Part shown: positions 40,081 through 52,011 of the stretch, piece by piece
Layout: every line of letters starts with the position of its first letter
Position numbering within the stretch: the stretch's first letter is position 1
Source of the DNA: Candidatus Bathyarchaeota archaeon
Lineage (GTDB): Archaea; Thermoproteota; Bathyarchaeia; 40CM-2-53-6
Assembly: GCA_963706285.1 (NCBI GenBank)
Contig: CAVPLU010000012.1
Span: 32,001 to 96,000 of the forward strand
Reading direction: 5' to 3'
DNA: 64,000 nt
The notes under the pieces: model-generated
Seen by the model: only the letters and a program-made list of their open reading frames with translations
What the model was told of the DNA's origin: nothing
Database searches by the model: none
Position numbers and translations under genes: made by a program

Positions 40081-42024
40081 CTACATCCTTTCCGAGAGGC
40101 GGATACCCAAGACTGCCATCGAGTTGGCCAAGACAACTCTGAGTGCGCGAATAAGCATAAGCCTCGAGGCTTTCAGCTCTGGTGTGTCTGCGCGAAGCAC
40201 GTTCACTTTTTCGTAATATTCATGAAACTTCTCAGCAAGCACATTGGCATAGCTCGCGATCTGTTCAGGCCTTAGTCTATCTGCGGACTCCGCGAAGATC
40301 ATCGGGAACTTCCCTATCTGCAGAATCAGGAGATGTTCAAGCGGGTCAGTCAGAGCGCTGTATTCGGGGGCCTCTTGGACATCGCCGGCTTTGGATAGAA
40401 TTCCGCCTGCTCTCGTGTAGGCGTAGTTGATGAAAGGAGCGCTGTTCCTTTCCAGACTTAACACGCGATCCCAAGTGAAGGTAATAGTCTTCGTACTGGA
40501 TGTCGAGAGCATCGCATATTTTATCGCCGCCAACCCTACTGTCCTGCTGATCTCTCGCCGATCCTTGTCGGAGAGAGTCTCCTCTCGGGACGAGATCTTC
40601 TCTTCTGCACGCGATACTGCTTGACTGATGATTTCATCAACACTGATGTATCTTGCTCTACGTTTGGACATCTTGACACCCGGCAACTCGACAATACCGT
40701 ACGCGTAGTGAACCAGATTCTCCGCAATCTGCTTCTGGCCGAGCGCGTAGAGTGCAAGCTTCAGCTGCATCTGAGCCAGTTTCTGCTCAGATCCTATTAC
40801 ATTCACAACTACGTCTGCGTCACGAAACTTCTTGATTGAATAGGCGATATCGCGCGTGACGTAGAGCGTTGACCCATCGCTTCTCACAAGCGTCAGCTGG
40901 GGCACTTCGTAGTTCTCAGCAAATCCAAGAGCCTTGTCTAGTCCGTGTGCTTTCGCTATCTTGTCGACGTCTAGCGCGAGCGATGTTCCATCTGTGATTG
41001 CAAATGGACTTGAGGACAACTGCTTCATCGAATCTCGGACTTCGCCACTCCACACCAGTTCGCTTTCCCAATCCCACTTATCAAACCGCACTTCCATTTG
41101 TTCAAGAGTGGCACGAATGCCTTTAAGAGATAATTCGACAACTTTTCTCACGATGTCTCGTGTCTTATCGTCGTCTTTCTCGTACCGAATGACGATCTGC
41201 TCAACCTCACGCATCGGGGCCGTTCTTGACCGGACGGATTCGACGGTCCTGTGGAAGAGCGTTGAATCGATTGACTCAAGCTCCCCCGCGACGGATGTCC
41301 AGTCCTCCAGTTCGCCGGAAAGCTCCGGGATCTTCTGTGTAGGGTCTGAGGTTTCACGGAGCCGTGAGATCTCAGTTTTCAGGGTTTCAATCTGAACTGC
41401 ACAGTTCACGCAGGCATAAAGGAGGCCCAGCCACTGGTCGGGTTTGCCAATGGGCGTTGGTTCACCTAGAAGGGAGTAACCGTAGGCGAGCATTGCCACT
41501 TGCTTCCCTACGTCGTCAATGTAGAACCTTGTCTGAACTTTGTTACCTCTGGCGCTCAAAATCCTGGCTAGTGCATCACCCAAGATTGTGTTTCTTGCAT
41601 GACCCAAATGCAACGGTCCACTCGGGTTCGCACTCGTATGCTCAACCACTATCCTCTTGGGTTCCGGCGTAGTAGTCAGTCCATAGTGTCCTCCTGCGGA
41701 TATCGAATCCGTAAGAATCTCCTGGCCAGCCTTAGTGAAGTCCAGATGGAAGTTCACGTACCCTGATCCAGCGGGTTCAACTCGATCTATAAGATCAAAC
41801 GTAGACACGTCTATGCGATCTGCGATCTTCTTCGCTATCTCCATCGGGGGAGTTTCAAATTTCTTCCCAAGTTCAAACGGGACTGATGATGCCAACTGGC
41901 CGAATTCTAGTGATGGGGGTTCCTCGAGCATTGCGTCAGGCAAGTCCAGATGATAGAGCTCTTGAATAGACGACGCTAGGGCTTGCGTGCATTGTTCTCG
42001 GAACCTTGTGAGAGTTGGTGGCAT
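40081..42024 (-). CDS. argS: arginyl-tRNA synthetase
   Basis: EHTSANPSGPLHLGHARN, KMSKRR, YAYTRA. Confidence 0.96.
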   Translation of the reverse strand: MPPTLTRFREQCTQALASSIQELYHLDLPDAMLEEPPSLEFGQLASSVPFELGKKFETPPMEIAKKIADRIDVSTFDLIDRVEPAGSGYVNFHLDFTKAGQEILTDSISAGGHYGLTTTPEPKRIVVEHTSANPSGPLHLGHARNTILGDALARILSARGNKVQTRFYIDDVGKQVAMLAYGYSLLGEPTPIGKPDQWLGLLYACVNCAVQIETLKTEISRLRETSDPTQKIPELSGELEDWTSVAGELESIDSTLFHRTVESVRSRTAPMREVEQIVIRYEKDDDKTRDIVRKVVELSLKGIRATLEQMEVRFDKWDWESELVWSGEVRDSMKQLSSSPFAITDGTSLALDVDKIAKAHGLDKALGFAENYEVPQLTLVRSDGSTLYVTRDIAYSIKKFRDADVVVNVIGSEQKLAQMQLKLALYALGQKQIAENLVHYAYGIVELPGVKMSKRRARYISVDEIISQAVSRAEEKISSREETLSDKDRREISRTVGLAAIKYAMLSTSSTKTITFTWDRVLSLERNSAPFINYAYTRAGGILSKAGDVQEAPEYSALTDPLEHLLILQIGKFPMIFAESADRLRPEQIASYANVLAEKFHEYYEKVNVLRADTPELKASRLMLIRALRVVLANSMAVLGIRLSERM

Positions 42025-42232
42025 CTTGAACTCCGCCAAGCTATCATGATATACGCAGGCATCGTACGGGCACAACTTACTGAATAGATTTGGGGGAACG
42101 CTGGAAATGTGGACCTACCTGATTGCGTAATGACGCAGCTTAAGTATCTTTCATGGAACTATCTGCCTGCAGCTGCAGGCGAGAGAAAGAATGTGTTCTT
42201 GCTCCCTGTTGGCTGAAATGTCGGGCGGGCTT

Positions 42233-42333
42233 GGGCGGGTATAGAAAGGGCAGTTTCTCCCGATGCCTAGCCAGGATAGGGCACAGGCCTCCGGAGCCTG
42301 GAGTCGCGGGTTCGAATCCTGCCCCGCCCGCCA
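42233..42333 (+). tRNA. tRNA-Arg(CCG) with 23-nt intron at position 9/10 (42242-42264); CCA encoded
   Basis: Spliced GGGCGGG-TA-GCCT..GGGC-A-CAGGC-CTCCGGA-GCCTG-GAGTC-GCGGG-TTCGAAT-CCTGC-CCCGCCC-G-CCA. Confidence 0.93.
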
Positions 42334-42386
42334 AGTGTACAAGATACGCGGTACCTTTTCGCAAACGCATTCTTCGTGCAGTGAGT

Positions 42387-43193
42387 TCATCTCGGTTTTC
42401 GAAGGAAGAAAACGAAGAGCACTACGAGCGTCATGCAAGCGACCGTTCCTACTTTTGAGAACTCCGGGATAGGGATACTCACGGTAGTGAATTGAACGTT
42501 TGAATCCATATTCGGGCTGTCGAAGTATGCTTGGTAGCGCCATCCCTCGGTGGTTGAGCCTACAATCACAAAAAACGCCAGAATATGGCCTTTTGAGATT
42601 GTTCGATTGACCGCGAAAGTCAGAGTGTACTTCGTCGGTGATTGACTCAGTATACTGCCAATATCGTACTTGTACTGGTAGAATTGATCACCAATTGGGT
42701 TGCCTGTGGCATCGGTTTCAGTCAGACCGAATGCGTACCCAGACGCGATTGGCACAGGATCGAGCGAGCTCATCCAAACTGTCATGGTTGCATTTCCTTG
42801 GATCGTCATGTCCGCGGCGAGCGGCTGAGTGATCCATGAAACGCCACCAACCCAAGCGTCGATCAATGCAAACCACAACCGTGTACTCTGGTGGATATTG
42901 CAGGATACAGCAGCAGTTCGCGCAGTTGCATACGTGGGGGGATTTTCATCAGCGCCATCGTAGATCAATATCGACGAGTTTGAGCTCGCATAGACTGAGC
43001 GATACATGTGGAAACTCATCTTGACTAGTCCCGATTGAGAGACCTGTTCCTCAGCCGCAGCTGCATGTACAAACTGCACGTAGAGCACAAAATTTGCTGT
43101 CAGCATCAGGACCACTAAGGCAAGGGTGCACCAGTTCTGCCAACCGATAGGAGATCGCTTGAGAAACAATATCGGACGCGTTCGATCAGGCAT
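42387..43193 (-). CDS. secreted protein with PEF-CTERM sorting signal
   Basis: Signal peptide; IPEF + TM + RKPR. Confidence 0.8.
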   Translation of the reverse strand: MPDRTRPILFLKRSPIGWQNWCTLALVVLMLTANFVLYVQFVHAAAAEEQVSQSGLVKMSFHMYRSVYASSNSSILIYDGADENPPTYATARTAAVSCNIHQSTRLWFALIDAWVGGVSWITQPLAADMTIQGNATMTVWMSSLDPVPIASGYAFGLTETDATGNPIGDQFYQYKYDIGSILSQSPTKYTLTFAVNRTISKGHILAFFVIVGSTTEGWRYQAYFDSPNMDSNVQFTTVSIPIPEFSKVGTVACMTLVVLFVFFLRKPR

Positions 43194-43307
43194 GTCATGG
43201 TTGACTTAAGGCTTTCACTATGAGATGCCTGAACGGTTCCTTCGATTATGTGACTTAGTGCGCAAGCATGAAGCGGTACTAGCGTTGGAGCTTGGTCAAA
43301 CAATTCA

Positions 43308-45927
43308 TCATTCTTGGTCAGCACAAGACCGTCTTCTTTGCAGTGCATAGACCATAATCAGGGAAATGGCTAGGATGAGCCCGCCTCCTTGAAGCTCAGG
43401 GAGAGGTTCACTAGGATACTTCAGATTGATATCCATAGGCGTCACCGAGCCGAGGGACAATTGCACTTCAGCTCCTTGAGTTGTGTATCCTGGGGATGCT
43501 GCTGCGATCATGTACTTCCCGGTCGGTAGCCACATCTGATAGAAGCCGTCCAGAGAGCTTGTATAAGCTTCCACGGGACCATAGGCTGTCACTGTGGCCC
43601 ATGAAATCGGAATCAAGTCTCCGTACATGTTGAATCCGGAGACGGTTCCGAAGACACGGCTTAGCTTCTCAAAGCTTACTGGGACAGTCACTATGCTTTC
43701 AGGGGTTGTTGTGACGGTTAATGTGTCAAGCTGCGAGTAACCAGGCACCCATACCACAACCCGATATGATCCAGGAGGTAGGCCGTAGTCCTTCTGCAAT
43801 TGACGGTCCGTGGTATCATAGAAGTTCACCCACCTCAAGGCAGGATTTCCCGCGTAGTTTCGGAAGCCGGCCGTCCAAACCGTCGAGTTGGCAGGGATCC
43901 GTGTCGCATTCGCAGCTACGAGAATCCCGTGAGTATCGTAAAGCTCGATTCGTACTGGTGGCCCTGGTGGCTGCATCCACGTGTAGGGTGTCGTATCGAT
44001 AGGCGCGATCAGACCCTCCGTCCTAAACGTCAATATCAGATTGATACGGGTGCCAGGTCAGCAAGTCCATCATCATGTCGCTCGCGCTTCCAAGCGACAC
44101 CACAACCGTATACTCCCTGGCCTGAAGATAGCCCACCGTGTAAGCCCTCAAGAGATACCGGTCAGGAAGTAGACCTGTCACATTGACGAAATTTACAGTG
44201 CGCGTACCATTCTTGTAATACGTTACAGTGCCCGTACCATTCTGCCTTCCGTTTGCAGTATAGAGTACTCCAGCTGAGCCTATCAACTCGAACCTGATAG
44301 GCGCATTAGGATACAACCAAGCGACTTCTAATGGCGGAGTCTGCCAATTCACCGATCGCAAAGCAATGAGTAGACTGCCCGCCCTAACCAAATCGTAACT
44401 GAGACTAACCACCGTGCAGCCTCCCCCAATCGCTGCCTGAACAAGCGTTGTCTGCACGTACCCAGGAAAAGAAGCCTGAATCACATACACTCCAGTAGGC
44501 GGTCCGTAAACTCCTCTTGAACCAGAAACCCCAACCAGCACACTCCCGTTGATGCTCACCCGCACTCACAAGAGTACCATACGAACCCCCAAGCGATCCA
44601 TCAGCAGCATACACACTAACCCTCAATACCCCGTCTTGCGGGACACCACAGTCCTCAAGCTTGACACCCCGGCACAAGTCGCCGCCCTCAGACTCACGGA
44701 AATGCACCGTAACAAGGAACGAGCCGCTCCCCCAAAGATCCATATTAACCACGATCTCACGCGAATAATCAAACACGTGAACACGAACCACATCATTCTG
44801 ATAATACCCATTCACACGAGCATTCAGATAATAATCGCCAAGCGCGAAACCAGAAACGTAATCCGCATAATCCTGCGGAACATGACCATCCAACTCCACC
44901 GACCCATTCAACATGAAATGATAATACGAAAGCAGCGGATCGGTTCTACCAGTCACAGAAACTACAAGACCGCCAGAATAATCCGACAATTCTATCGTGA
45001 TCAGCGACGAATTAGACACGCTACCCCAAGGAACTGGCCCGCTAACACATTTCGAAGTGATGAGGCCAGTTATTGTTGCGCTTGGATGCAAATAGATGTC
45101 GACGCCTTCCAACGATTGACCAGTAGAAACAGTAACCCTCTCACTCATCTCTAATGGAGTGAAGCCATCCGCTGAAGCATTCAACGTGTACGTTCCCGCC
45201 GCGAGGCCATAGATAGTGTAGGCACCATTCGCGGAAGCGATTGAAGTAAGCCTGCGCCGTGACGGTTCTACCTTGCCTAGTCGTACCTTCCGCAATAACC
45301 CTACCCGACACATCAACAGGCTCAGCGTACATTCCTTGCGTCCCATTCATCACGCGACCAGAAATGTACGCTGGATCCAAATCACATTTCACCACAACAG
45401 TCGGAAAATTCTCCGCACCTATCGACTGCCCATCCGTGAAGACCTTAACGAAATACCTACCACACACGGTAGGAGCTTCAACGTTGAACAATCTTATGAA
45501 GTAGCTACCGATCGGAATAGTACCGTTCTCGACAACTATCCTCCACCAGCCAGGCGCGATAGCATCCCTCGATCCCTGTCTGCCTAGAGATATGCGGTTG
45601 TAGTCATTCGTTATGCTGGTCCAAACACTCACGGTGCCCGATTGCTGAAAACCAAACTCAGGCGGCACATAAACCACAATCGAAGACACAACCTCGCTTA
45701 ACGTGACGTTTAGAGAGATGTCGCCTGTCGAATTCTGCAGTATAGCACCCTTCGGATAATCCAGCTTCACCACGCTGTCAGACGTGCCCAAATCATGAGC
45801 ATACATTCCAGGAGACATCTGCACCTTAGCCTGACCTCCCGGATTTGCTAAGGCATCTCCAGGGACGCAGCCGGTCTGCAATGACCAGCAACAGTATGAT
45901 GAGCAATAGTCGCTTAGAACAATTCAT
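43308..45927 (-). CDS. large surface protein with carboxypeptidase-regulatory-like beta-sandwich repeats (several 1-nt indels)
   Basis: Four track ORFs join by single-base corrections; repeated G.Y.....L..G.Y...A...GY units; LPEL + TM + RRR end. Confidence 0.8.
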
Positions 45928-45978
45928 CTTCAATCCGCCGGAAGGTCTTGAACAATCCAAGACCGACGTGTCGCCGAG

Positions 45979-46383
45979 CTAGGTTGTTGTAGGCGTCGAT
46001 TCTTCCTCTATGGGCAGTTCCGACATATCTTCGACTTCTTCTCCTTTTCTCCGTCGAGCATACACCATAGCAATTCCCAAGACTGCCAAGACTATGAGAA
46101 AACCGCTCAGTAACGAATTGATGACTAAGATCTCGCTGGATGTCAACGGAAGTGAACTTGTTGCACGTGTGAAAGCAGTGAAAGCAGTGTTGGTTCCACG
46201 TGGAAAGGTTTGGGAAGGAAAGAACATGTCTTGGAGGTAGGCATATGCACCGTTCAGAATTCCTGCCACTAAGCTTGCGGATGCCAACCTCTTCTTGGAA
46301 ATCCTCGGGCTCTTAGATCTGATTGCCGATCCCACTGCGAGGCCGGCAACGATTACTGGGATTATGATTGATACCTGTGCCAT
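45979..46383 (-). CDS. hypothetical membrane protein
   Basis: Three hydrophobic segments, acidic tail. Confidence 0.7.
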   Translation of the reverse strand: MAQVSIIIPVIVAGLAVGSAIRSKSPRISKKRLASASLVAGILNGAYAYLQDMFFPSQTFPRGTNTAFTAFTRATSSLPLTSSEILVINSLLSGFLIVLAVLGIAMVYARRRKGEEVEDMSELPIEEESTPTTT

Positions 46384-46504
46384 AGAGCTCGCCTAACTTT
46401 TACCTGAGCTTCGAACGCATTTATATAAGGATGCTAAGAGGCCGTCATCAGGGAAAAATAGTCTTGGTGCTTCCGAGTGTCCACAACCCCGATCCGGAGA
46501 TGAT

Positions 46505-47485
46505 GTGAACGTGAATGCTCTCGTTGTGTTGAAAGAACGAGCGATTTTCGCATTCGTATTGTTGTTGCTTCTTGCGCCGATCGGCGTTGTTGTCGGTCAG
46601 AGCGCTACACAATTGACCGTAACCGTTACTGGTCAGACGTTGACTGCAGGTTTCAACAATAATGTCACGATAACGGTTACGGACAGCTACTTTTCGGGGA
46701 ACGTGTATCCGTCCTCAGCGATTTACGATGTGGACGTCGCCGTATCGTTGCCTACTCCGCTACAAATGTTCGGAGATAACCATTGGCACTACGGTACGAT
46801 CGCGTTGAAGCAGTCTGTCACCATTAGCCTTCAAGTCTATGCGCCTATTTCAGCGATCGGCAGCTCGTATCAGGGCACAATTACTGTGAATTATCGAGAG
46901 CTTGGTGACATATCCTACACTACGGAGACTCATCAGGTTAGCTTCGCAGTTCGCGGCTGGATCAGCCTAGTACTCTACGGTGTACAGGTGACGGTGACCG
47001 CTGCCGTGCCTGGCGGTAACGCAACAATCTCCGGCAACCTCCTCAACAGCGGAAACCTAGCCGCCTACAACGCGAACGTGACAGTCAAGTCAGACGCGTT
47101 AGCGTCAACCAGCGTCTCAAGCCTATTCTTGGGTGAAATTGATCCTAACATACCTAGACCATTCAGCCTCCTAATCAACTTCAAGAAAACCCTAACCGAA
47201 GGAAACTACTCAATCACAATCAAGGTAACCGCAATCGACACAAACAACCCAGCCTCACCATACAGCGTCCAACAAACATCACGAATCCAAATAAGAAAAC
47301 CCGTCGTGCAACCACCGCAACAGCGACAGCAGGAAAGTGGCGTCACTGGAATGGTTCTTGAGATCCTACGATTTCTCTATGGATTGTTCTTCGGTTTCTG
47401 GAGTCTTGCAACATCGGTCTGGCCGACCTACTCGTACTTCAGTGCTACAACCGCGTTCATCCTTGATGCCCGCCACGCAGGATAG
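46505..47485 (+). CDS. COG1361-like secreted Ig-fold protein associated with ABC exporter
   Basis: Signal peptide, ISGNLLNSGN.AAYN, LFLGEIDPN; convergent with MacB-like permease. Confidence 0.75.
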   Translation: MNVNALVVLKERAIFAFVLLLLLAPIGVVVGQSATQLTVTVTGQTLTAGFNNNVTITVTDSYFSGNVYPSSAIYDVDVAVSLPTPLQMFGDNHWHYGTIALKQSVTISLQVYAPISAIGSSYQGTITVNYRELGDISYTTETHQVSFAVRGWISLVLYGVQVTVTAAVPGGNATISGNLLNSGNLAAYNANVTVKSDALASTSVSSLFLGEIDPNIPRPFSLLINFKKTLTEGNYSITIKVTAIDTNNPASPYSVQQTSRIQIRKPVVQPPQQRQQESGVTGMVLEILRFLYGLFFGFWSLATSVWPTYSYFSATTAFILDARHAG

Positions 47486-48714
47486 AGTCCAGCCAGCGTT
47501 GCCAGTACGACAGGGAATACCAAAGAGAAGAGAATGAGCCCGCTTGAGAATACAGGGTGAATAGTCATAGTCGCGGCGGCGCTACCGCCCCCACCTCCAC
47601 CACCGAAACCGGTGAATCCTCGTCCACCGCCAATGCCAAAGCCCGCGAACATTCCACCCATGAGGTAGGCAAGCATGAAACCAAGCACCAATCCGAAAAC
47701 ACCGCCGAGCATCCCCGTCAGGGCAGCTTCAGCTAGGAAGATGCTCATTATCTGCTTGGGCCTGAAGCCCAATGCCTTCATTACGCCGATTTCTCGCGTT
47801 CGCTCCATCACGGATACGAACATGGTGTTGATTATGCCCACAGCAGCGACGAATAGCGAGACAGCACCAATACTCCCCAAGAACAAGCTCAATTGGCTGG
47901 TGATACTCGTAATGCTCGACAGGATTTGCCCGGGGCTCACAACCCGCACGTTTGATGAGTAGTAGGTTTCGATTGCTGATTGGACGTTAGCGACATCGTC
48001 GGGCGTCGCGGTTATTACGTAGATGCCCGTGTAGACCGGGGTTTTCGCTAGAAATTGGACAGCCTGTATGGGTATGAAGACTGTGTCGTCTACGTTCGAG
48101 AACAACGCCGAACCGTATTGGCTCAAGATCGCGCTAGCAAGAACCGTGTAGGCAGTTCCTCCTCCCCTAGCTCCCCTGATGCCTGAAACTGTCATTGAAA
48201 CCATCTGCGTGATTTGCAGGGGGGTACCCGAGGTCGGGTATGCAATCCCCCACCCCACGACCGCAGAGGTCGTGGCGCCAACGTCCGGTAAGGAACCGGC
48301 TGCAATTGTCAATCCGTTGTATAGCACGAACAAGGCGTTCAGATCTAACCCAACAAGAGTCGTCTGGAGAGAGGACCCACCGACGTTCATCGTTGCTCCA
48401 TACTGGTAGTACGGATAAGCCGCAATGACCCCGCTGATTGTCCGTAGGTAGCTTACGTCACTGTCTGTAAGTTGGAAGGAACTCGAACTCTGCGAACCAG
48501 AAGCGAATTGTCCGCGTGCTGGCTGAATCGTCAGAACGTTCGCACCCGTTTTCTGGATTTGGCTCGTAATACCTGCACTGAGCCCGCTTGAACTCGCGAC
48601 TAATGCTAGGATAATGGCTGATCCCACCGCAATTCCGAGCATAGTCAAGACGCTGCGGACCTTTCTGTCCATCAGAGCCTTGAAAGCTAGCCTGAATGTA
48701 TCTGCGAGTCTCAA
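47428..48714 (-). CDS. ABC transporter permease (MacB/FtsX family)
   Basis: RKVRSVLTMLGIAVG, SVMERTREIGVMKALG, GLYPAWRASRM. Confidence 0.95.
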   Translation of the reverse strand: MRLADTFRLAFKALMDRKVRSVLTMLGIAVGSAIILALVASSSGLSAGITSQIQKTGANVLTIQPARGQFASGSQSSSSFQLTDSDVSYLRTISGVIAAYPYYQYGATMNVGGSSLQTTLVGLDLNALFVLYNGLTIAAGSLPDVGATTSAVVGWGIAYPTSGTPLQITQMVSMTVSGIRGARGGGTAYTVLASAILSQYGSALFSNVDDTVFIPIQAVQFLAKTPVYTGIYVITATPDDVANVQSAIETYYSSNVRVVSPGQILSSITSITSQLSLFLGSIGAVSLFVAAVGIINTMFVSVMERTREIGVMKALGFRPKQIMSIFLAEAALTGMLGGVFGLVLGFMLAYLMGGMFAGFGIGGGRGFTGFGGGGGGGSAAATMTIHPVFSSGLILFSLVFPVVLATLAGLYPAWRASRMNAVVALKYE

Positions 48715-48901
48715 TAGGAGTCACTTCCCTTCCGAGAAATCCTGCACAAAGCGCTTTCTATCCTGATCAAATCGAACATCATTCTTCCAAGTGAGAATGG
48801 CAAACATGTCGGCTGCCTTGCTACGCTTAACCGAGTCATCATTGCTTGCCCTGTCCTTGCCTTGAACTCATGTGCAAATACTCCAAATGTGAGTATTGGC
48901 G

Positions 48902-49642
48902 TCACGCTCCTGTGTAGGAATCCATCCGCTGAAGATACTGCTCTTTCTCAATCAGCCCATCTTTGATTGTGATCACGCGATGCGTCATGTTAGCAACATC
49001 TGGATTGTGGGTCACTAGAACGAATGTAGTGCCGAGGGTCTTGTTGACTTGGACAATGTAGCTGAGAACCTCGTTAGTGGTCTTCGAGTCCACGTTTCCA
49101 GTCGGTTCGTCGCCAAGAACGAGAGCAGGCTGAGTGACCAGCGCCCTCGCGATCGCGACGCGTTGCTGCTCTCCGCCGCTAAGTTCTGTTGGGCGCTTGT
49201 TCGCTTTCTTTGCCAGCCCAACTGCGCTTAACATCTTCAAGGACCTGCTCCTGCGAATCTTGTCTGATACGCCCCTTGCTATCAGTGGCATCTCCACATT
49301 CTCAATTGAAGTGAGTCTCTGAATTAGGTTGAAGGTCTGGTAGACGAAACCAATCTTCTGGTTTCGAAGGATAGCAAGCCCATCTTCATTCAGCCTCTTC
49401 AAGTCAACGCCATCGATGATGACACGCCCTGATGTAGGCGGGTCAAGCGCACCAATCAGGTTAAGGAGCGTCGATTTCCCACTACCTGAAGGCCCAACGA
49501 TCGACACGAGTTCACGCTTTCCTATCTTAAGATTCACGCCCCTGAGAGCCGGATAGTCCATGTGCCCTACACGATAGACTTTCGTAACGTCGATCGTTTG
49601 AATCGCTGGAGGGCTTCGCGCTGTCAATTCTCTCTCAGCCAC
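48902..49642 (-). CDS. ABC transporter ATP-binding protein (LolD/MacB-like)
   Basis: GPSGSGKST, LSGGEQQRVAIARAL, DEPTGN. Confidence 0.96.
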   Translation of the reverse strand: MAERELTARSPPAIQTIDVTKVYRVGHMDYPALRGVNLKIGKRELVSIVGPSGSGKSTLLNLIGALDPPTSGRVIIDGVDLKRLNEDGLAILRNQKIGFVYQTFNLIQRLTSIENVEMPLIARGVSDKIRRSRSLKMLSAVGLAKKANKRPTELSGGEQQRVAIARALVTQPALVLGDEPTGNVDSKTTNEVLSYIVQVNKTLGTTFVLVTHNPDVANMTHRVITIKDGLIEKEQYLQRMDSYTGA

Positions 49643-49726
49643 GTGTGGGTTCGAATGGTCGAGGATTTACGTGTTTTTCCTGCGTTTTCTCACATCAATC
49701 GTCCAGAACGATTCGAAAGCACACTT

Positions 49727-49828
49727 TGGAGCCGGGGGTGGGAGTCGAACCCACATTCTGCGGCTCTGCAGGCCACCGCCTGAACCGTTCGGCCTTCGGT
49801 GGTCACATCAGTTGTGACCAACCCCGGC
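49727..49828 (-). tRNA. tRNA-Cys(GCA) with 26-nt intron at position 8/9 (49795-49820); CCA encoded
   Basis: Spliced GCCGGGG-TG-GCCG..AGGC-G-GTGGC-CTGCAGA-GCCGC-AGAAT-GTGGG-TTCGACT-CCCAC-CCCCGGC-T-CCA. Confidence 0.92.
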
Positions 49829-49992
49829 ATTTTCCCCGGCAGTCGAAACTTCAATTCTTGCCGTATAAGTCTATTGAACAGAGTATCAGTATTGACGCAA
49901 CCGGCTTCATTTGGGGTGGCAGCATCTTTTTGTTTGATCACTGTCAGGCACATGGTTAGGAAGACCTCCCGATGGAACGTGGACAGGCGTTC

Positions 49993-50269: not shown

Positions 50270-50944
50270 CTAGGCTTCTAGTATCTCCGCATTCTCCAAT
50301 GCGCGTCTAACCATGTGGTTCACATCCAGATGCGTCTCAGACTCTGCAATCTCGTCAGTTCGAGAATGCGTCCTTGGTTTACGCGTTGGGATTCCGCAGG
50401 CTGCTACGCCAGGGCTTATTGAGAGCTCGAATGTTCCGATGGTCTTGGCGACGCGTTCAATCTCGTCTTTGTTCATCCCGACAAGGGGTCTGATGACGGG
50501 AAGCCCCTCTGATGTCGAATCCGTCACGAATAGATTGTGCAGCGTTTGGCTGGCCTTTTGTCCCACGACATCTCCTGTAACTATGCAGTCTGCCATTTCT
50601 CTGCGTGCGATCTCGCTTGCGACTCTAAACATCATTCTTCTTGATATCACGCACGCGAGGTTCCGTTGGCAGGAGCTGACTATTTCCGTAAGGTCTGGAG
50701 AGTGTCCAATGATGTAGGTTCTGATTGGTGGAGAACGCGAGTAGGCCCTGACCTTTCTAATGCTTTCAATAGCGATCTCTTTTCCTCTTCGGTCAGCAAG
50801 CGGGTAGCTGTCAAAGAAAACGCTGATTGCAGCCATACCGGCCTTTATGATAAGCCATAGAGCGACAGGGGAATCGATGCCTCCGGAGATCAGACATACT
50901 GCTCTCCCTCGGTCAGCGCCCTGCGGCGAACTTCGGCTCACCAT
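50270..50944 (-). CDS. ThiI-like PP-loop sulfurtransferase lacking THUMP domain
   Basis: LISGGIDSPVA, RRMMFR.A, TGD.VGQKASQTL.NL, RPLVGMNKDEI. Confidence 0.88.
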   Translation of the reverse strand: MVSRSSPQGADRGRAVCLISGGIDSPVALWLIIKAGMAAISVFFDSYPLADRRGKEIAIESIRKVRAYSRSPPIRTYIIGHSPDLTEIVSSCQRNLACVISRRMMFRVASEIARREMADCIVTGDVVGQKASQTLHNLFVTDSTSEGLPVIRPLVGMNKDEIERVAKTIGTFELSISPGVAACGIPTRKPRTHSRTDEIAESETHLDVNHMVRRALENAEILEA

Positions 50945-50955
50945 TTCTGTTGTTG

Positions 50956-52011
50956 TCAAGCGTAACGACCTGGTCTTTTGCCAACCTTGTCCATGATTTT
51001 TCGATATACTTCGATCGCTTCTTGTTCGGAACTGACTCCTTTTATCAGCATCCTCCCGTGAGCGAAAAGAGTGATCTCGCGACCTGCGTATTGAAAGACC
51101 AAGGCCATTGGAGTCCTTAGGTGGATGCGAGTTCCCTTGCCGAGGCGCTTTGGAACGGACCTGAGGTCTATCCTGAGTTGCCTCGATGGATTGATATTCA
51201 CGGTTTCTTTGCCGCAGAGCCACGTGAGTCTCTCTTCAGCAGGTTGTTGAATTGGCTGGGCTACTTGGCACACTTTGCAGTCGCTTCTGATCTGAATATC
51301 TACCGTTCTAAAGTCCATCTCTCGAAAATCGCAAATGAGTAGCTTTCCTTCAAGTGAGGGTTGAATTCCAGCGAGCAATTTGATCGCTTCGGTAGCTTCG
51401 AGTGCACCGATGCTTCCGGTTGTTGTGCCTAGCACACCTCGCGTCTCACAGGTGGGCAAGTATTTGTCGTCGAGGCCTGGCATTATGCATTCCAAACATG
51501 GCGTCTTTGGCGACCTGAATACGGATATGTTTCCCTCCATCCCGATTGCACCCGCGAAAACGTACGGGATCGAGTGTTTCACGGCCGCGCGATTGATTAC
51601 GTATCGAGTTGCCATGTTGTCAAGGCCGTCTACAATACAGTCGCAGTCAGCGACTATTTCGTCGACGTTTGCTTCACGCACATTTTCGGCAACCGGCTCA
51701 AGACGAACTTGAGGGTTGAGACTCTTGAGTCTTCGGACTGCCGCCTCGACCTTTGGGGTTCTCACGTCCTCTACGCCATACAGGATCTGTCTTTGGAGGT
51801 TGTGAGTCTCGACAGTGTCTTGGTCGACCACTCGTATCCTGCCGACTCCGGCCATTGTGAGGTATGCTGCAGCAACTGCGCCTAGGCCTCCTAACCCTAT
51901 TATCGCTACTGTTGCGTGCCTCAGCTTCTCTTGCCCTTCGTGGCCCAGCTCCCGCATGACTTCCTGTCGTGAGTAGTAATCTCTCAGAGAGACATGCTGC
52001 TTCGTTCTCAA
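50956..52011 (-). CDS. MoeB/ThiF (E1-like) adenylyltransferase
   Basis: YSRQ, GLGGLG, D.DTVE.HNLQRQ, PCLEC, TCETRGV. Confidence 0.93.
   Translation of the reverse strand: MRTKQHVSLRDYYSRQEVMRELGHEGQEKLRHATVAIIGLGGLGAVAAAYLTMAGVGRIRVVDQDTVETHNLQRQILYGVEDVRTPKVEAAVRRLKSLNPQVRLEPVAENVREANVDEIVADCDCIVDGLDNMATRYVINRAAVKHSIPYVFAGAIGMEGNISVFRSPKTPCLECIMPGLDDKYLPTCETRGVLGTTTGSIGALEATEAIKLLAGIQPSLEGKLLICDFREMDFRTVDIQIRSDCKVCQVAQPIQQPAEERLTWLCGKETVNINPSRQLRIDLRSVPKRLGKGTRIHLRTPMALVFQYAGREITLFAHGRMLIKGVSSEQEAIEVYRKIMDKVGKRPGRYA

Follow-up and report, generated by a model that had tools for sequence, protein, structure and literature searches.

Archaeal transfer RNA (tRNA) introns at non-canonical positions are described as forming bulge-helix-bulge (BHB) structures out of exon and intron bases (Marck and Grosjean 2003 and Sugahara et al. 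2008, both cited in PMC4090602), the cloverleaf being remodelled for splicing and the cuts being made by a splicing endonuclease (EndA) of broad specificity (PMC4090602). The positions named in the available part of PMC4090602 are 3/4, 20/21, 22/23, 25/26, 29/30, 30/31, 45/46, 53/54, 56/57 and 59/60. In split (trans-spliced) and permuted tRNAs, the leader and trailer pair and form the BHB themselves (Randau 2005, Soma 2007 and Chan 2011), according to the available parts of PMC4090602, PMC4033280 and PMC3218864. Here we describe an arrangement at two tRNA genes, tRNA-Arg(CCG) and tRNA-Cys(GCA), in a 64,000-nucleotide (nt) stretch of DNA from a Candidatus Bathyarchaeota archaeon (assembly GCA_963706285.1, contig CAVPLU010000012.1, positions 32,001 to 96,000; this whole stretch is called the window below). 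Both genes have an intron just behind the 5′ acceptor strand, and in both an exact copy of the seven bases of that strand stands a few nucleotides ahead of the tRNA, in the leader. We consider it probable, though well short of assured, that the copy acts in the precursor RNA as a surrogate 5′ acceptor strand, a placeholder for the true one.

The Arg and Cys introns would share their BHB design, EndA cutting and cloverleaf remodelling with the non-canonical introns. They differ in lying at 9/10 and 8/9, which are not among the positions named in the available part of PMC4090602, and in having a putative leader-encoded surrogate strand, which is not mentioned there. With split and permuted tRNAs, as those papers describe them in the parts available, they would have in common that transcribed sequence outside the mature tRNA pairs so that an endonuclease substrate forms; here, however, the gene is contiguous, and the leader mimics a mature strand and would pair with the 3′ strand, outside the BHB. 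Parallels also exist outside tRNA splicing. Ribosome biogenesis uses placeholders, among them the U3 small nucleolar RNA and 5′ external transcribed spacer, which hold 18S segments, and the bacterial pre-16S leader. The shared feature is a transient surrogate helix that lasts until processing allows strand exchange to the final helix, but the tRNA placeholder would act in cis, would match the sequence of the final partner exactly or nearly so and would be coupled to protein-catalysed splicing. Pairing of a pre-tRNA 5′ leader with the 3′ end can also affect RNase P cleavage or site choice. There too leader bases lie on the 3′ acceptor side and RNase P must choose the right site, but such pairing is incidental or inhibitory, unlike the full-register 7-nt replacement proposed here, which is conserved and linked to introns. 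The first-pass annotation of the window knew of no description of the arrangement, and we likewise found no leader mimic of the acceptor strand in the searchable literature, which does not hold the key primary intron papers; none is mentioned in the available parts of PMC4090602, PMC3293823, PMC4033280, PMC12397907, PMC3728597 or PMC3218864.

Rfam tRNA matches at the two genes span model position 10 (Arg) or 9 (Cys) to 63, so the tRNA bodies are intact but cut off from their first nine or eight bases. Removal of the insert yields a full cloverleaf in both cases, with 7/7 acceptor pairing, U8 and the anticodons CCG and GCA. U8-N9 follows the downstream copy alone, which is therefore the mature strand; the upstream copy was rejected as the real 5′ end, since only the downstream one has U8-N9 and fits the BHB. 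The two leader copies and their spacers are where the first-pass annotation had placed them (Table 1). It had also claimed that the central helix of each BHB is built from acceptor bases, and reading of the sequence bears this out, with 3-nt bulges in both genes. By this reading the Arg BHB would be strict: C4-G7 (CGGG) pairs with CCCG at 42259-62, the bulges are UA|U and AU|G, and AGAAA (42243-47) and TTTCT (42254-58) close the intron hairpin. The Cys BHB would be relaxed: C3-G6 faces ACCG at 49800-797 with three pairs and a G.A, the bulges are GU|U and AA|G, and the intron hairpin is formed by GGTCACA (49819-13) and TGTGACC (49807-01). A BHB that uses acceptor bases and the 7-bp acceptor stem exclude each other, and the stem has the greater stability; a surrogate for the 5′ strand would free the true one.

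Table 1. Coordinates in the window of the features of the tRNA-Arg(CCG) and tRNA-Cys(GCA) genes.
Feature	Coordinates	Strand	Remark
tRNA-Arg leader copy GGGCGGG (putative surrogate 5′ acceptor strand)	42223..42229	+	complementary 7/7 to 42323-42329
tRNA-Arg spacer CTT	42230..42232	+	sequence
tRNA-Arg 5′ exon: acceptor strand G1-G7 (GGGCGGG, 42233-42239), U8, A9	42233..42241	+	
tRNA-Arg intron, 23 nt, position 9/10	42242..42264	+	Rfam match resumes at 42265, model position 10
tRNA-Arg(CCG) 3′ exon, G10 to encoded CCA	42265..42333	+	
tRNA-Arg 3′ exon, T arm	42306-42322	+	
tRNA-Arg 3′ exon, 3′ acceptor strand	42323-42329	+	
tRNA-Arg 3′ exon, discriminator G	42330	+	
TATA-like TTATAC	49863..49868	-	22 nt ahead of the Cys leader copy
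tRNA-Cys leader copy GCCGGGG (putative surrogate 5′ acceptor strand)	49834..49840	-	sequence
tRNA-Cys spacer AAAAT	49829..49833	-	sequence
tRNA-Cys 5′ exon: acceptor strand G1-G7 (GCCGGGG, 49828-49822), U8	49821..49828	-	
tRNA-Cys intron, 26 nt, position 8/9	49795..49820	-	Rfam match resumes at 49794, model position 9
tRNA-Cys(GCA) 3′ exon, G9 to encoded CCA	49727..49794	-	
tRNA-Cys 3′ exon, T arm	49754-49738	-	
tRNA-Cys 3′ exon, 3′ acceptor strand	49737-49731	-	
tRNA-Cys 3′ exon, discriminator U	49730	-	

In the window and the genome, the frequency of each of the two 7-mers is about 3-6e-5 per position and strand, and the chance of a copy within 25 nt upstream is about 0.001 for one tRNA and about 1e-6 for both. 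The observation is far beyond chance, as the first-pass annotation had argued from two different 7-mers each matching its own tRNA. Both genes thus combine a full-register 7-mer no more than about 25 nt upstream with a first intron at 7/8-9/10, the combination that we take to define a surrogate. An assembly artefact was rejected, the arrangement recurring in many independent assemblies. Nor are these split or permuted tRNA genes, both being contiguous and collinear, and the repeat, exactly seven acceptor bases 3-5 nt away, does not resemble an integrase attachment-site (att) duplication; such duplications are tens of nucleotides long and kilobases apart.

The window belongs to a genome of 2.13 Mb in 21 contigs (G000; 89% complete, 7.5% contamination). 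ARAGORN in its default mode detected no tRNA in the window, and hence neither the Arg nor the Cys gene, and with -i it mis-assigned most tRNA genes; with Rfam RF00005 the genome yielded 23 matches at E<=1, among which the Ser and Met examples described below were absent. As both tools missed or mis-assigned genes, we searched with a scan of our own, in which a T arm had to precede a 3′ strand with a 7/7-pairing partner upstream; it returned 41 candidates. Five were judged false, leaving 36 tRNA genes, and about ten expected tRNAs are not among them. All 36 are 88-241 nt long, so each contains at least one intron.

Five of these tRNAs have their first intron at 7/8-9/10 (Arg, Cys, Ser-UGA, Met/Ile-CAU and a Pro), and each of the five has in its leader a 7-mer with 7/7 pairing to its own 3′ strand, compared with one of the 29 others, in which the D arm follows directly (Fisher 2e-5). 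Duplicates are thus not equally common before other tRNAs of the genome. The copies of Arg and Cys are exact, with spacers of 3 and 5 nt. Ser-UGA (contig C13) has GCCGGGA twice with a 6-nt spacer, the CAU-anticodon tRNA (C4) has GGGCCC abutting GGGCCCG, and Pro (C3) has GGGGCTG 13 nt ahead of GGGGCCG. The leader of this Pro tRNA (241 nt; G000:C3:165464-165787, minus strand, L021) repeats about 16 nt of the tRNA 5′ end, consisting of the surrogate acceptor strand, two bases and then GTCTAGAC, which resembles the D stem; when folded, this leader is paired partly to the 3′ acceptor strand and partly to the 3′ side of the D arm. The exception among the 29 is tRNA-Gly(UCC) (G000:C3:155175-155404, minus strand, L022), which has GCGGCC abutting GCGGCCG and its first intron in the D loop. 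This abutting copy is found in G000 and its nearest relative G001 only, G005 and G006 having none; a young duplication, chance or a relic could each account for it. A scan of G000 for the mirror case, a trailer copy of the 3′ strand, gave three spurious matches and no tRNA with a 3′-proximal intron.

The same association holds in nine genomes of the order, G000 and eight others from seven families. In the eight added genomes we took matches to a pattern of T arm plus CCA (12-39 per genome, up to 30 loci each) and scored a leader strand when it paired 7/7 (Watson-Crick or G.U) and lay within 25 nt. The count excludes genes with no 7/7 true stem, genes outside G000 with no CCA, genes less than 110 nt from the end of the locus, T loops that depart from the pattern, and the matches beyond 30 loci in G015 (5), G023 (9) and G036 (1). 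By this automated count, a leader strand is present in 18 of 26 tRNAs with a first intron at 7/8-9/10 vs. 5 of 160 in which the D arm follows directly (Fisher 9e-15, a value that overstates independence because the genomes are kin); none of six unclassified tRNAs has one. The chance rate, obtained from mismatched pairs of leader and 3′ strand, is 1.9% (602/31108). Three tRNAs with D-arm introns have a wobble-containing 7/7 leader strand (L233 in G014, GCCTTGG; L264 and L262 in G015, GTCTTGG and GGGCTTG), which may be chance at the 1.9% rate or may mean that the device extends to some D-arm introns. Two members were added to the 26 by hand, the Ser tRNA of G036, with an exact copy, and the Cys tRNA of G037, with GCCGGGA. 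The resulting 28 comprise 19 with a strict copy, three with a near copy (GGGCGGA, GCTCCGA and GCCGGGA) and six that are copy-less, namely Ser of G014 and G015, Pro of G015, Leu of G023 and a GCxCAGG tRNA of G015 and G037. A surrogate hidden inside the intron of these six was rejected, as nothing there exceeded chance.

Orthologs of single tRNAs show the same dependence on the intron. In a first set of tRNA-Arg(CCG) loci, the copy is present in all ten that bear the intron (the window's own included; seven GGGCGGG and three GGGCGGA), nine of which come from the window's genus and one from G036 of another family, and in none of the three without a 9/10 intron, one of which has a different acceptor. 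A second set, which partly repeats the genomes of the first, adds one intron-bearing locus with the copy (L080) and ten intron-less loci with no exact copy; nine of these ten have the identical acceptor GGGCGGG, and the tenth (L065) has a 6/7 match overlapping +1. For Ser-UGA, 12 of 12 intron-bearing loci have an exact copy vs. 0 of 3 intron-less ones (one further locus, L037, being left out of the count), and for Met/Ile-CAU the abutting GGGCCC is found in 12 of 12 intron-bearing loci vs. 0 of 4 without the intron. Intron-less Arg, Ser and Met/Ile-CAU orthologs with the same acceptor thus do without the copy, and where it occurs it co-varies with its own acceptor, across eight tRNA kinds and eight acceptor sequences; the first-pass annotation had anticipated such covariation.

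In the leader, conservation is confined to the copy. In distant congeners, BLAST similarity at the Arg locus begins at query 41-43, that is 0-2 nt ahead of the copy, and the Arg spacers differ (ctt, tat, ttt, gtt, cct, gcctg, gccta); Cys spacers are 4-13 nt long and mutually dissimilar, and across all copy-bearing tRNAs the spacer runs from -1 to 13 nt. In these alignments the seven acceptor bases are kept and nothing around them, the flanks having diverged. The Arg copy persists in a family whose arginyl-tRNA synthetase (ArgRS) is only 45-46% identical, and the Cys copy GCCGGGG recurs not only in congeners but also in other genera, in other families and, outside the class, in two families. 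It is thus established that the copies exist, are conserved, are tied to the position of the intron and can pair with the 3′ strand.

We also scanned 401 genomes of the phylum for the Cys 7-mer occurring twice within 14 nt, together with a reversed control pattern. Raw matches in 49 of the 401 genomes are not informative, since the reversed control matches at a similar order. Of 29 loci that were read, 18 are not tRNA genes and 11 are. Eight of the 11 are tRNA-Cys with an 8/9 intron and the copy, from G033 within the order, two genomes of family f29 and five of family f34, both families carrying a label that places them outside the window's class; another two, from two genomes of family f55, also outside the class, are tRNA-Ser-UGA that combine the copy with an 8/9 intron; and the last is a tRNA lacking an intron of this kind. 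No match to the double Cys 7-mer came from the roughly 55 genomes that represent other orders of the window's class. The tRNA-Cys genes of f29 and f34 (loci L359-L367) have the T loop TGCAAAT and no encoded CCA, yet keep the 8/9 intron and the copy. The presence of the arrangement in several classes suggests that the device is old.

The variants of the copy bear on what it pairs with. They include GGGGCTG, GCTCCGA and, for GGGCCCG in three genera, GGGTTCG, GGGTCTG and GGGCTC|G. All internal changes are C to U opposite G, and at position 7 the copy often has an A, which leaves the last pair mismatched. The tRNA-Ser genes of this order have A-U as the 7:66 pair and GCCGGGA as the copy, those of f55 G-C and GCCGGGG. 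These wobble-compatible changes and the covariation with 7:66 point to the 3′ acceptor strand as the partner of the copy.

Folding predicts a corresponding switch. We folded precursors with ViennaRNA at 37 C with the T arm enforced, nested structures only. For four G000 examples, the predicted probability that the copy occupies the 3′ strand is 0.93-1.00 with the leader present, and the true stem has a probability of about 0; if the leader is removed, that stem returns at 0.90-0.99 and the central helix falls to 0. For the Ser and CAU tRNAs, the fold with the leader gives the exact 4-bp central helix a probability of 0.99. Over the 18 copy-bearing precursors with their native leader, the mean probabilities are 0.06 for the true stem, 0.83 for the 3′ strand on the leader (at least 0.76 in 16 of the 18) and 0.69 for pairing of bases 3-7 with the intron region. 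The same 18 without a leader give 0.95 for the true stem and 0.03 for bases 3-7 into the intron region, and the eight tRNAs without a strict copy, folded with their native leader, give 0.61, 0.13 and 0.26 for true stem, leader and intron region. When the copy was scrambled, the folds mostly restored the true stem. A switch of the 3′ strand between copy and true strand, depending on the leader, is thus predicted thermodynamically.

If the copy is to pair, it must be transcribed, and the first-pass annotation had placed the transcription start of tRNA-Cys at about the duplicate, relying on the TATA-like element of Table 1. An expectation-maximization (EM) run restricted to -45..-16 yielded a positioned motif, AAgCTTTA, that ends a median of 30 nt (quartiles 28-32) ahead of +1 in the 19 of 28 ordinary tRNA genes that score at least 6; this positioned motif came from the restricted run only, another EM run giving a purine-rich motif at scattered positions. 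The best site is 25 nt ahead of the copy in Pro and in Cys and 33 nt ahead of it in Ser, and the distances to the true +1 are 45, 37 and 46 nt for Pro, Cys and Ser; the Cys site is TAGACTTA. For these three of the five tRNAs the spacing agrees with a start at the duplicate; for Arg and the CAU tRNA there was no convincing automatic site, the CAU one being probably wrong. The motif spacing is weakly in favour of the copy lying at the start of the transcript. Four RNA runs gave no coverage of either window tRNA.

In the placeholder mechanism that we propose, the surrogate would lie at or a few nucleotides from the 5′ end of the transcript, pair with the 3′ acceptor strand and stack on the T arm as a pseudo-acceptor helix, leaving the true 5′ strand free to form the BHB for EndA. 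Ligation would remove the intron partner, and the true strand would then displace the surrogate, a step that tRNA tertiary contacts would favour, as would the G.U pairs or position-7 mismatch found in the surrogate helix of many lineages. RNase P would finally cut at the true +1 and remove the surrogate together with the spacer. We infer the transcription of the copy, its effect on EndA, the strand exchange and the order of processing, including the RNase P step. G000 encodes an RNase P RNA (183.7 bits) and two genes of the EndA family (PF01974; 87.9 and 44.8 bits; open reading frames of 200 and 181 aa), by sequence two candidate subunits as in the heterotetrameric type, which accepts relaxed or non-canonical BHBs. 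A wider formulation, to which we give an even chance, is that of a previously undescribed, ancient cis RNA device of those Thermoproteota pre-tRNAs whose BHB has to draw on acceptor bases, in which a surrogate minihelix would license splicing and be evicted toehold-like before RNase P trimming.

Several points weigh against the placeholder. The BHB is all that archaeal EndA recognises, and the intron could be removed during transcription, before the 3′ strand exists. The six copy-less tRNAs must still be spliced, so the surrogate is dispensable in at least 6 of 28 tRNAs and is not obligatory; folds of the copy-less tRNAs keep the acceptor stem, at a probability of about 0.98 in four. In two of the 18 copy-bearing precursors (L251 and L304) the 3′ strand is not on the leader, and the exact central helix reaches only 0.07-0.31 for Arg and 0-0.09 for Cys with the leader present. 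RNAfold excludes pseudoknots, so the alternative with the copy on the intron and the true strand on the 3′ strand was never scored. The wobble argument is biased, copies having been recognised by their pairing, and the pooled statistics overstate independence among related genomes. The 5 of 160 leader strands outside the intron class are close to chance, but four of them belong to tRNAs with D-arm introns.

An alternative that we think unlikely, but deserving of more weight than the others, is that the copy pairs with the 3′ strand for another purpose while the BHB forms independently of it. It might protect the 3′ end, provide an acceptor/T-arm minihelix for 3′-end, CCA or modification enzymes, or block RNase P or aminoacylation until splicing is done. 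The evidence from pairing, conservation and promoter placement fits this as well as it fits the placeholder, and 6 of the 28 tRNAs manage without a copy. These purposes would, however, suit any precursor with a free acceptor stem, whereas the copy is specific to introns whose BHB consumes acceptor bases and elsewhere occurs at chance level (5/160 vs. 1.9%). It is improbable that the copy instead pairs with the intron or the D-arm region, as an outer BHB helix or an anti-BHB regulatory helix. The copy does contain the same CGGG-type tetramer that pairs with the intron, and in the Arg fold the spacer and G1-G2 pair with CCAGG of the D loop, but the copy retains each of its seven positions, even bases 1-3, for which the intron offers no partner; position 7 of the copy covaries with base 66 in tRNA-Ser; spacers of -1 to 13 nt are unfit for a fixed BHB geometry; and pairing of the copy with the intron alongside a formed true stem would require a pseudoknot. 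More improbable still is a neutral relic, either of a small tandem duplication or of intron gain, or a DNA-level element such as an initiator-like sequence or recombination scar: the 16-nt repeat in the Pro leader suggests a duplication origin and tRNA-Gly of G000 and G001 offers one young, non-conserved abutting copy, but divergence of the spacers and upstream flanks has spared only the seven acceptor bases, the copy persists across families and classes, intron-less orthologs have none, the variants are wobble-compatible, and a scar of integrase att recombination would not be 7 nt long and adjacent.

If the placeholder mechanism is true, the copy would be an element new to tRNA maturation in archaea, a transcribed mimic of a mature strand that settles the competition between splice signal and acceptor stem and serves as a built-in folding chaperone and a switch for the order of events. 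It would help to explain introns at the junction of 5′ acceptor strand and D arm, and it makes testable whether pre-tRNA architecture outside the BHB matters for archaeal splicing and for the order of end processing. The copy is also a usable signature for tRNA gene finders, such genes being missed by ARAGORN and half-matched by Rfam.

In the window, the tRNA-Arg gene lies about 150 nt from a divergent ArgRS gene (40081-42075, minus strand), whose product has its closest relatives, 94-72% identical, in Candidatus Bathyarchaeia metagenome-assembled genomes. The adjacency of the ArgRS gene and its cognate tRNA is repeated in most Bathyarchaeia loci fetched by means of the ArgRS protein. In G036 (L158, L159 and L163) and G023 (G023:C3:154826-154850), the 3′ portion of tRNA-Arg(CCG) is present as orphan copies at a distance of a few kb from the genuine gene. 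They look like attachment-site remnants of integrated elements, and the partial copies of G036 look unlike leader copies. Some 430 nt upstream of tRNA-Cys, and on its strand, is a ThiI-family gene (PF02568, 1.3e-51; 50270-51223, minus strand). The ThiI family makes 4-thiouridine at tRNA position 8, and its presence next to a tRNA with an 8/9 splice junction is probably a coincidence.

Two further observations concern acceptor strands in other settings. On contig C4 of G000, at minus-strand offset 397547 (about 81106 on the plus strand), a T arm is followed by the 3′ strand CTCCCGC, with no 5′ strand matching CTCCCGC within 330 nt; possible identities are the 3′ fragment of a tRNA, a split gene and a gene whose 5′ strand is interrupted. 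The tRNA gene at G000:C13:56498-56748 (plus strand, L024) and those of L137 and L301 have a putative intron within the acceptor strand itself (GCGG|...|CCG), and in these three, from three genomes, the first three intron bases (TCG, TCG and CTG) complete a 7/7 pseudo-strand with the 3′ strand.

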